From the sequence record PZ739819.1: DNA of 1,114 bases; one strand, 5' to 3'. The notes under the pieces are model-generated. The model was not told the origin of the DNA, made no database searches, and saw only the letters and a list, made by a program, of their open reading frames with translations. This stretch comes from a phage. Of this stretch, positions 13 to 1,114 are shown piece by piece. Position 1 is the stretch's first letter. Each line of letters opens with the position of its first letter. The position numbers were made by a program, and so were the translations under genes.

Positions 13-40
13 TTGCACGTTTAACAAAAAATGCTATCAT
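13..40 (+). promoter_or_regulatory. Candidate sigma70 promoter: -35 TTGCAC (13..18), 16-nt spacer, extended -10 TGcTATCAT (32..40)
   Basis: Seen in sequence: TTGCAC matches the TTGACA consensus at 3 of 6 positions with the TTG intact; TATCAT matches TATAAT at 5 of 6; a TG dinucleotide sits one base upstream of the -10 hexamer. The predicted transcription start is near 47..48, giving a 5' UTR of about 36 nt. Hexamer-only prediction in an AT-rich intergenic stretch, so chance occurrence is quite possible. Confidence 0.3.
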
Positions 41-72
41 TGTGGCGTTACATACTAACAGCCTTTATATAT

Positions 73-77
73 GGAGG
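73..77 (+). promoter_or_regulatory. Shine-Dalgarno ribosome-binding site (GGAGG) for the CDS starting at 84
   Basis: Seen in sequence: GGAGG at 73..77, then the 6-nt spacer AAGAAA, then ATG at 84..86. The region around the start is A-rich (AAGAAAATGGAAAAAGAAAAA), which is typical of efficiently initiated genes. Confidence 0.7.
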
Positions 78-83
78 AAGAAA

Positions 84-1058
84 ATGGAAAAAGAAAAATT
101 TGATCAGCTAGATGCGGATATTGTTTCTAGCTATCTGGCTACTCGCGGCGTTAAGGGTGATGCTTCTGATATGGGTATCTGGACGGCGCAAGAGCTTCAC
201 AAGATCCGCTCTAATGCTTACGAGAAAGAATATCCGGCAGGTTCAGCGCTTCGTGTATTCCCTGTAACTAATGAGCTTTCTGATACTGATAAGACTTTTG
301 AATATCAGATGTTTGACAGGGTTGGTTACGCAAAAATTATCGCTGATTACACAGACGACCTGCCGACCGTTGACGCGCTGATGTCCAGCGAATTTGGTAA
401 AGTGTTCCGCTTGGGTAACGCGTTCTTGATCTCCATTGACGAAATCAAGGCTGGTCAGCGCACTGGTAAGAGCCTTTCCACTCGCAAGGCAAACGCAGCG
501 CAAAACGCGCATGATCAGGAAGTTAACCGCTTGGTGTTTAAGGGTTCAAAACCGCATAAGATTCTTTCGGTGTTCGAACATCCTAACCTGACAAAGATCG
601 TGTCTTCTGGCTGGTTAAGTAATGATGAAAACACTAAGTTCCCGCAGGCTGCATCTGATGAACTGGAAAAGGCTATTGAAACCATTCAGACCATCACCAA
701 TGGTCAGCACCGAGCAACCAACATCCTGATTCCGCCGTCTATGCGCAAGGTTCTTTCCGTTCGAATGGAAAACACCACTGAAAGTTATCTGGAATACTTC
801 CAGAAACAAAACAGCGGAATCACCATTGACTCAATCGCAGAGCTTGAGGATATTGATGGCGCTGGAACGAAAGGTTGCCTGGTATATGAGAAAGACCCAA
901 TGAACATGTCGATCGAAATTCCAGAAGCATTTAACATGCTTCCGGCGCAACCAAAAGATCTGCATTTCAAAGTTCCGTGCACTTCAAAATGTACTGGCCT
1001 GACGATTTACCGTCCGTTTACGCTGGTGCTTATTACTGGCTTGAAAAAATCAGGTTAA
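84..1058 (+). CDS. Putative phage/prophage structural protein, tentatively a small HK97-fold major capsid protein (encapsulin-like, DUF2184-like); 324 aa
   Basis: Seen in sequence: uninterrupted frame with ATG at 84..86 preceded by GGAGG (73..77) at 6-nt spacing, TAA stop at 1056..1058, intrinsic terminator just downstream. The N-terminus MEKEKFDQLD reads as a natural start. Codon usage is enterobacterial-like. The product call is inference from length (about 320-340 aa, typical of delta-domain-less capsid proteins), acidic soluble composition and the gene-then-terminator context; no alignment was run. Confidence that this is a real CDS is about 0.85; the stated value reflects the added uncertainty in the start and product (product alone about 0.35). 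Confidence 0.75.
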   Translation: MEKEKFDQLDADIVSSYLATRGVKGDASDMGIWTAQELHKIRSNAYEKEYPAGSALRVFPVTNELSDTDKTFEYQMFDRVGYAKIIADYTDDLPTVDALMSSEFGKVFRLGNAFLISIDEIKAGQRTGKSLSTRKANAAQNAHDQEVNRLVFKGSKPHKILSVFEHPNLTKIVSSGWLSNDENTKFPQAASDELEKAIETIQTITNGQHRATNILIPPSMRKVLSVRMENTTESYLEYFQKQNSGITIDSIAELEDIDGAGTKGCLVYEKDPMNMSIEIPEAFNMLPAQPKDLHFKVPCTSKCTGLTIYRPFTLVLITGLKKSG

Positions 1059-1071
1059 TCGTATAACATTG

Positions 1072-1102
1072 GGGAATCCTTAACTGGATTCCCTTTTTTA
1101 TT
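1072..1102 (+). terminator. Rho-independent (intrinsic) transcription terminator
   Basis: Seen in sequence: perfect 8-bp stem GGGAATCC (1072..1079) pairing with GGATTCCC (1086..1093), 5 GC and 3 AT pairs, 6-nt loop TTAACT (1080..1085), immediately followed by TTTTTTATT (1094..1102). It begins 14 nt after the TAA stop. The minus-strand reading lacks a good U-tract, so it is mainly unidirectional for the plus strand. Confidence 0.8.
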
Positions 1103-1114
1103 GGAGATTATGAA

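Follow-up and report, generated by a model that had tools for sequence, protein, structure and literature searches.

A single long open reading frame lies on the + strand of the phage DNA analyzed here (the window; 1,114 bases, 43.9% G+C). According to our analysis, this frame, at positions 84–1058, is almost certainly the gene that encodes the major capsid protein (MCP) in a virulent T1-like siphophage infecting E. coli/Shigella (Drexlerviridae, Tempevirinae, Hanrivervirus-like). Homology directly supports the assignment of the product as an HK97-fold subunit and an orthologue of T1 gp47. The coding sequence is already known, as it is near-identical to annotated Hanrivervirus MCP genes, and the value of the annotation is to place the source sequence firmly among the T1-like virulent coliphages (probably the Hanrivervirus group). 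With its flanking signals, which are listed together with the coding features in Table 1, the capsid gene looks like a self-contained transcription module made of a promoter-like element of the extended −10 type at 13–40, to which the inverted repeat contributes, a strong Shine-Dalgarno sequence, the open reading frame and an efficient intrinsic terminator. Such a layout suits high expression, which a capsid gene needs.

Table 1. Coding features and predicted signals in the window (position 1 is its first base)
Feature	Position	Strand	Basis and remarks
−35-like hexamer TTGCAC	13..18	+	3/6 vs TTGACA; 16 nt 5′ of the −10-like hexamer; alignment of 45 upstream regions
21-nt intergenic direct repeat known from T1-like phages (consensus aaATAGCACnnnTTGnTAAAA), inverted copy	19..39	−	+ strand reads GTTTAACAAAAAATGCTATCA
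Extended −10-like element TGcTATCAT, putative sigma-70 capsid promoter	32..40	+	Hexamer at 35–40; the inverted repeat ends in this element, and "AT" completes it
Weak hairpin with a bulge, GGCGTTACATACTAACAGCC, then TTT	44..63	+	−4.2 kcal/mol, z = −0.28; degraded counterpart of the strong hairpin of relatives
Shine-Dalgarno GGAGG	73..77	+	6 nt 5′ of ATG 84; sequence
Major capsid protein gene	84..1058	+	324 codons plus TAA, 36.1-kDa precursor; PF09950, PHROG 264, T1 gp47, annotated MCP genes
Predicted N-terminal propeptide, codons 1–26 (MEKEKFDQLDADIVSSYLATRGVKGD)	84..161	+	TLS Edman N-terminus, start of the T1 model, alignment
Predicted mature capsid subunit, residues 27–324	162..1055	+	298 aa, 33.2 kDa; aligned with T1 gp47, it spans the N-arm, E-loop, P-domain and A-domain
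Intrinsic terminator	1071..1100	+	9-bp stem GGGGAATCC/GGATTCCC(T) and 6-nt loop at 1071–1094, T run at 1095–1099; annotated terminator in G29-2
GGAG ribosome-binding site of the next gene (90-aa DUF7444 protein)	1103..1106	+	G29-2 CDS start equivalent to window position 1115

Identity and origin of the gene

In the mechanically generated list of open reading frames, the same frame runs from a GTG at position 42 to position 1058 and would encode 338 amino acids. This start was dropped, since relatives align from residue 1–5 of the product that begins at ATG 84. Based on this alignment and on the position of the Shine-Dalgarno sequence, we chose the ATG at 84–86, from which the frame extends to a TAA at 1056–1058 and yields a product of 324 amino acids. 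A counterpart of the Shine-Dalgarno sequence precedes the equivalent ATG in all relatives except L013, which is apparently rearranged. The single gene proposed in the first-pass annotation is thus real. Its product, which had been described as acidic and soluble, is indeed mildly acidic, with a computed mass of 36.1 kDa, a pI of 5.64, a GRAVY of −0.40 and 44 aspartates and glutamates against 38 lysines and arginines.

The product matches PF09950 (Major_capside, formerly DUF2184), the first of the families that had been named beforehand for a profile search, with an E-value of 4.6e-54 and 183.8 bits (cutoff 26.8) over profile positions 1–250 of 251. It also matches PHROG 264, annotated as "major head protein", at 2e-99 over profile positions 19–320 of 321. 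Sequence searches of the PDB returned the T1 MCP (9KMG/9KMH and 9KZJ; E around 1e-158, aligned over 3–320), followed by the MCP in 9N01 (4e-93) and the capsid of cyanophage Pam3 (8HDT, 9e-19). T1 gp47 and the window protein are 76.6% identical across 316 aligned residues, and their alignment has just two small gaps. The earlier statement that the protein is not close to those of the classic model phages therefore fails for T1, which was absent from the list of phages named there. Through homology to the cryo-EM model of T1 gp47, the N-arm, E-loop, P-domain and A-domain of the HK97 fold can be assigned to the window protein; the fold assignment comes from this T1 structure, the single-sequence AlphaFold2 model being uninformative (mean pLDDT 32.9, pTM 0.21).

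At the nucleotide level, megablast of the window matched 220 phage records, of which 141 cover at least 80% of it, and the best match (98.3% identity) is annotated as a major capsid/head protein. Escherichia phage phiE31-2 is 98.3% identical in DNA and 99.4% identical in protein. G29-2, aaroes, pSf-1, egaa and further Hanrivervirus phages follow with 96.9–98.0% DNA identity, and their copies too carry the annotation major capsid or head protein. A tblastn search detected the capsid family in 1,255 phage records, again with a top protein identity of 99.4%. The exact sequence of the window is absent from the phage collection searched. Over its 1.1 kb, the window is 96.9–98.3% identical to members of Hanrivervirus (pSf-1, G29-2, aaroes, and egaa) and about 81% identical to Warwickvirus, although genus and species demarcation is formally made on whole genomes.

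The first-pass annotation had also called the product encapsulin-like. A bacterial encapsulin is a cellular nanocompartment shell protein of the HK97 fold that packages cargo enzymes, and the common fold class as well as a weak match to PF04454 (Linocin_M18, E = 0.046) could be read in this sense. However, this match reaches 13.4 bits, below the gathering score of 24.3 bits, and is confined to residues 101–181, whereas the strong matches are all to phage capsid families and solved phage capsids. Each close relative lies in a phage genome of about 50 kb that contains portal, terminase and tail genes. In addition, a megablast search of 5,426 complete E. coli genomes (20,395 records) gave no match to the window. 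On the basis of the sub-threshold profile match and the phage context, the encapsulin reading was rejected and we regard it as having practically no chance of being correct.

The same E. coli search bears on the suggestion that the capsid gene belongs to an integrated prophage or to a phage satellite (PICI-like element) and not to a free virulent phage. Prophages and some satellites do contain HK97-fold capsid genes, and no lifestyle marker is present in the window itself. However, the 141 phage records mentioned above are all Drexlerviridae with genomes of 48–53 kb, TLS and T1 are described as virulent (PMC11447400), and the signals that flank the gene, the 21-nt repeat among them, are typical of Drexlerviridae. 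Since the E. coli genomes gave no match and the relatives are virulent Drexlerviridae of about 50 kb, we rejected the prophage and satellite origin as very improbable, and the encapsulin reading falls on the same grounds.

As the window covers the capsid gene only, its gene context was taken from relatives at 77–98% identity. Phage G29-2 differs from the window at 22 of the 1,114 bases, with 5 amino-acid changes. In its genome, the genes for the small and large terminase subunits, the portal (PF06381, 1e-70) and a MuF-like head-morphogenesis protein are followed by those for a 370-aa DUF2213 protein (PHROG 530, "head maturation protease"), two paralogous cement proteins (PF22758/PF23982) and the MCP. 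Downstream of the MCP gene come those for a 90-aa DUF7444 protein, a DUF4054 connector protein, and the tail completion and terminator proteins, and further downstream those for the major tail protein, chaperones, the tape measure protein and the tail tip proteins. The DUF7444 product matches PF24231 at 7e-38 in a relative, and its start codon lies just past the window end in the relatives. The gene order of TLS is the same as that of G29-2. Terminase, portal and protease, which mark a head-morphogenesis module, are thus found in both TLS and the 98%-identical G29-2. Our results agree with the central proposal of the first-pass annotation, namely that a phage morphogenesis module supplied this gene for an HK97-fold major capsid protein: the PF09950 match and the T1 orthologue support the protein assignment, and the expected flanking genes (portal, protease, cement, connector, and tail) are present in these relatives.

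Proposed head assembly, maturation and scaffolding

T1 gp47 (319 aa) structurally resembles HK97 gp5, with an N-arm, an E-loop, a P-domain and an A-domain (PMC11945409). The icosahedral T1 head (PDB 9KZJ) has T=7 symmetry and is built from 415 copies of gp47, arranged as 60 hexamers and 11 pentamers; the cement proteins gp48 and gp49 decorate and stabilize it as trimers (PMC11945409). For both the T1 and the TLS orthologues, the MCP has been shown to outnumber all other shell components in the virion (PMC11945409, PMC11447400). Homology to the solved structures shows the window protein to be the predicted building block of a T=7 shell cemented by trimers of the gp48/gp49 type. In the relatives, the cement genes lie directly upstream of the MCP gene.

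The N-terminus of the protein is very probably removed during maturation. The MCP of TLS virions runs below its predicted mass and Edman sequencing of it gave ASDMGIW (PMC11447400), which corresponds to window residues 27–33. In T1, the atomic model of gp47 begins at residue 27 (PMC11945409). Both observations point to a cut between D26 and A27, by which the prohead protease would take off MEKEKFDQLDADIVSSYLATRGVKGD (2.9 kDa). The junction K-x-D/A-S-D-M-G-I-W is kept in the window, and residues 26–34 are invariant in alignments of relatives.

The delta domain of HK97 comprises about 100 amino acids. Nothing of this length is present here, as 26 residues precede the predicted mature N-terminus. 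The description of the protein as "delta-domain-less" is therefore right as far as an HK97-type domain is concerned, but misses the short propeptide that the TLS and T1 data very probably reveal.

In the assembly pathway that we propose, the 36-kDa precursor would co-assemble on the portal, aided by the 370-aa DUF2213 protease that is encoded upstream. The DUF2213 prohead protease would then remove residues 1–26 at the D26/A27 junction. The shell would then expand during headful DNA packaging and be locked by the cement proteins, and the connector and tail would attach. For precursor synthesis and loss of the 26 residues, we draw on sequence conservation and on experimental work with orthologues; portal assembly, expansion, and attachment of the connector and tail are deduced from gene content and from what is established for pac-type siphophages (TLS packaging). 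A literature search on the structure of the T1 procapsid returned nothing relevant.

The first-pass annotation had expected a portal gene and a separate scaffolding gene upstream. The portal gene is there in the relatives, but a separate scaffolding gene is not evident upstream and none is annotated in G29-2 or TLS. We infer that the C-terminal part of the DUF2213 protease, of about 240 amino acids, is the likeliest scaffold and the one candidate. In this 370-aa protein, the protease profile is matched over residues 16–133 only (about 120 aa); a PDB sequence search with it gave no match.

Alternatively, the MCP could act as its own scaffold, the N-terminal 26 residues being a miniature delta domain that makes any other scaffold unnecessary. 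This would agree with the missing annotation of a separate scaffolding gene in G29-2 and TLS, and the TLS authors call the N-terminal segment lost by cleavage "the putative scaffolding portion" (PMC11447400). However, 26 residues are far below the size of known delta domains, and the residues of the DUF2213 protein beyond its protease domain could do the scaffolding. We therefore consider self-scaffolding unlikely.

Signals around the capsid gene

The leader was compared in 45 distinct Drexlerviridae sequences, obtained from 51 IMG/VR loci and from GenBank phages. In this set, the 83 nt 5′ of the ATG are strikingly conserved. The −35-like hexamer is found at the same place as TTGACG in the T1 group (5/6) and as TTGAAC in the TLS group (4/6), and the −10-like element is kept as TGCTATCAT, TGCTATTAT or TGCTATATT in all but one of the 45 distinct sequences (44/45). 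A generic sigma-70 scan missed this conserved upstream element, whose −35 match is weak. The scan reported instead three weak promoter-like sites, two within the open reading frame and one across the stop codon, a count that is not above chance (3 found vs 1.8 ± 1.3). Our search of the literature for transcription start mapping in Drexlerviridae found nothing relevant.

A hairpin begins 0–3 nt past the −10-like hexamer. In most relatives it is strong, GC-rich and followed by a T run, with 25 distinct sequences of −10 to −14.5 kcal/mol. The stems vary by lineage yet still pair (GGCCGTTA/TAACGGCC, GGCTGTTA/TAACAGCC, and AGCCGTGA/TCACGGCT), a conservation seen by folding each sequence separately and not a formal covariation statistic, since the MAFFT alignment lost the register of the hairpin arms. 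In the lineage of the window itself, the hairpin is degraded.

The block at 19–39 is invariant across the sampled Drexlerviridae and keeps its orientation. It is the reverse complement of the 21-nt intergenic direct repeat that TLS, T1, Rtp, and Rogue1 are known to carry, the function of which the TLS authors list as an open question (PMC11447400). The copy in the window matches aaATAGCACnnnTTGnTAAAA and is intergenic, but it is inverted relative to the capsid gene, whereas the published rule has the repeats oriented with transcription, about 60–76 nt before the start codon. This inverted orientation before the capsid gene is already documented, though not discussed, in the supplement of the TLS work, where the copy 5′ of the MCP gene appears as DR7, on the negative strand (Table S1 of PMC11447400).

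We then counted the repeat core in G29-2 and found 16 copies, compared to about 0.5 expected. Fourteen of them are co-directional with the next gene and lie 59–67 nt (85 nt in one case) before its start codon. The other two are inverted and precede the capsid gene and the tail-chaperone gene; the copy of the tail-chaperone gene abuts the ribosome-binding site. A −10-like box follows the co-directional copies after 17–19 nt, so that the repeat sits where a −35/UP element or an activator site would be. A plain reading of the upstream block as just the capsid promoter has to be qualified accordingly, because the motif occurs 16 times genome-wide and mostly in the opposite orientation.

Two readings of the inverted copy can be set side by side. 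On the + strand, the repeat would supply the extended −10 from which a putative sigma-70 promoter serves the capsid gene. Since it begins right after the repeat, the hairpin would stop or attenuate only those transcripts that arrive from the upstream cement gene. This arrangement of promoter and hairpin fits the "transcripton" architecture of the T1 late region, as quoted in PMC11447400. In the other reading, the repeat may act in its own direction and drive transcription away from the capsid gene. More tentatively, the inverted repeat, the extended −10 and the covarying hairpin might together form a dedicated control module, which would either insulate the capsid gene from transcription arriving from upstream and boost its expression, or drive an antisense transcript into the cement gene; we consider this unlikely. 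If it were true, the capsid leader would be a natural test case for the function of the 21-nt repeats.

Downstream of the gene, the strong terminator noticed in the first-pass annotation stands, with its GC-rich 9-bp stem and TTTTT. A 46-nt segment that includes it has a folding energy of −15.7 kcal/mol (z = −3.99), which not one of 200 shuffled sequences equalled. Among 40 distinct downstream regions from relatives, 39 have such a hairpin, at −12.8 to −16.1 kcal/mol and with 6–8 T behind it. As these regions contain 19 different hairpin sequences, it is the structure of the terminator and not its sequence that is conserved.

Comparison with known systems

HK97 gp5 is the archetype of the fold, and its domain names apply here as they do to T1 gp47; its prohead protease also trims an N-terminal segment. 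Searches of Pfam, PHROG and PDB sequences detected no sequence similarity between HK97 gp5 and the window protein. The two systems differ in the segment removed, a delta domain of about 100 aa in HK97 and a predicted propeptide of 26 aa here. They also differ in the way the shell is stabilized: the HK97 capsid is held by covalent chainmail cross-links, whereas T1 uses separate trimers of cement proteins. Encapsulin shell proteins (PF04454) share the HK97 fold class, but the window protein scores below the threshold of this family and its relatives are encoded in phage genomes; it is not a member.

The closest known proteins are the MCPs of Hanrivervirus phages (phiE31-2, vB_EcoS_G29-2, pSf-1, aaroes, and egaa), with 98.5–99.4% protein identity and 96.9–98.3% DNA identity over the 1,114 bases, both intergenic regions included. 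They differ from the window by point substitutions only. TLS gp36 (Tlsvirus) is 79.6% identical and likewise 324 aa long; its mature N-terminus, ASDMGIW, matches, and the inverted repeat DR7 is found 5′ of its gene. The TLS leader differs in its stronger hairpin (−11.1 vs −4.2 kcal/mol here) and in its promoter-like hexamers, TTGAAC instead of TTGCAC and TATATT instead of TATCAT.

T1 gp47 (PDB 9KZJ and 9KMG/9KMH) is the orthologue with a near-atomic structure, and its gene also follows two cement-protein genes. It differs at about 23% of residues, T1 being a Tunavirus and the window Hanrivervirus-like. Compared to the 319 aa of gp47, the window protein has five extra residues, mainly in a longer C-terminal tail (LKKSG) and in a 2-residue insertion near 178–181. 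A more distant member of the same family is the MCP of phage ZL19, solved with Avs7 and EF-Tu (PDB 9N01; E = 4e-93, aligned over 5–320). A preprint shows that the STAND defence protein Avs7 and Dsr1 are directly triggered by the MCPs of Drexlerviridae, among them T1 gp47 and that of ZL19 (bioRxiv 10.64898/2026.01.04.697583). In the T1-like family, it is the free MCP that these bacterial defence proteins sense, and T1-like MCPs are of current interest as the molecular pattern recognized by both.

Intergenic repeats and the hairpin 5' of the capsid gene

According to our analysis of the phage G29-2 genome, 14 of the 16 copies of the 21-nt intergenic repeat of T1-like phages point in the same direction as the next gene, with a regular spacing to the start codon (59–67 nt, and 85 nt in one case). 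The inverted copies are only those preceding the capsid gene and the tail-chaperone gene. If the inverted repeat served simply as a promoter, transcription beginning 7 nt past the -10-like hexamer of the tail-chaperone copy would cut off the ribosome-binding site of that gene, so a simple promoter role is a poor fit to this second copy.

Analysis of the relatives' loci showed 25 distinct sequences for the hairpin next to the -10-like element; in most Drexlerviridae it covaries and folds strongly, at -10 to -14.5 kcal/mol. The same hairpin is degraded in the Hanrivervirus lineage of the window (-4.2 kcal/mol). As it begins 0–3 nt past the -10-like hexamer, RNAs initiated at the putative promoter would miss part of its 5' arm.

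In many co-directional copies of G29-2, the 17–19 nt separating the repeat from the -10-like box form a GC-rich palindrome, such as CCAGGattcgcaCCTGG or CCCGATacgagATCGGG. TTTT follows these palindromes when the opposite strand is read, and one of them (1274–1294) is labelled as a terminator in the G29-2 annotation.

Features of the capsid gene region and of related loci (L001, G29-2 locus; L002, TLS locus; L003–L055, further relatives' loci)
Feature	Location	Strand	Remark
Inverted 21-nt T1-like intergenic repeat	window 19–39; L001 10019–10039	minus	match to published aaATAGCACnnnTTGnTAAAA
Hairpin and T run	window 44–63; equivalent place in L003–L055		directly 3' of -10-like element
Second inverted repeat copy, TTTAACAAAAAGTGCTATCAA	L001 13780–13815		directly adjoins GGAG ribosome-binding site of tail-chaperone gene
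Repeat/palindrome/-10-like box examples	G29-2 genome 1223–1254, 42031–42062, 45281–45312, 48126–48157		
Two genes just 5' of window	L001 9008–9520 and 9566–10000		"hypothetical protein" in G29-2
Ribosome-binding site of next gene, GGAG	window 1103–1106		window stops at site (1103–1114)
TLS gp36 (major capsid protein)	L002 4438–5412		324 aa annotated

Processing of TLS gp36 and capsid gene records

Work on phage TLS states that a protease cleaves 45 residues (5.2 kDa) off the capsid protein, and reports the Edman sequence ASDMGIW (PMC11447400). However, this sequence begins at residue 28 of the annotated gp36, which corresponds to the removal of 27 residues and a change in mass from 35.96 to 32.81 kDa; the stated cleavage disagrees with the paper's own Edman sequence. 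The gel mass of about 29 kDa reported for this protein (PMC11447400) is a good fit to neither removal.

GenBank also holds 19–20 unannotated "Campylobacter phage" records with Campylobacter jejuni as host. Four of them (MG065636, MG065670, MG065680 and MG065687; about 15 more belong to the set) carry this E. coli T1-like capsid gene at 93–95% nucleotide identity over the full window, and the records probably represent T1-like coliphages that are contaminants or were mislabelled. Among the IMG/VR contigs, the capsid frame is broken or shortened in L013 (Shigella phage 2019SD1), L046 and L048, with 307, 80 and 132 aa called, respectively; in L013 the sequence directly 5' of the start also differs. 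Sequencing or assembly errors, or local rearrangement, are the likely origin of these defects.

Neighbouring genes

Downstream, the next gene encodes a conserved 90-aa DUF7444 protein and has its own terminator in G29-2. The ATG at 1110–1112 lies too near the GGAG to serve as its start, and relatives begin at the equivalent of 1115.

In phage W011D, the equivalent upstream gene is labelled "scaffolding protein". Given that both upstream genes match cement/minor-capsid families (PF22758/PF23982), some public annotations, hypothetical or scaffolding, look outdated or wrong. Their T1 counterparts are the cement proteins gp49 and gp48.
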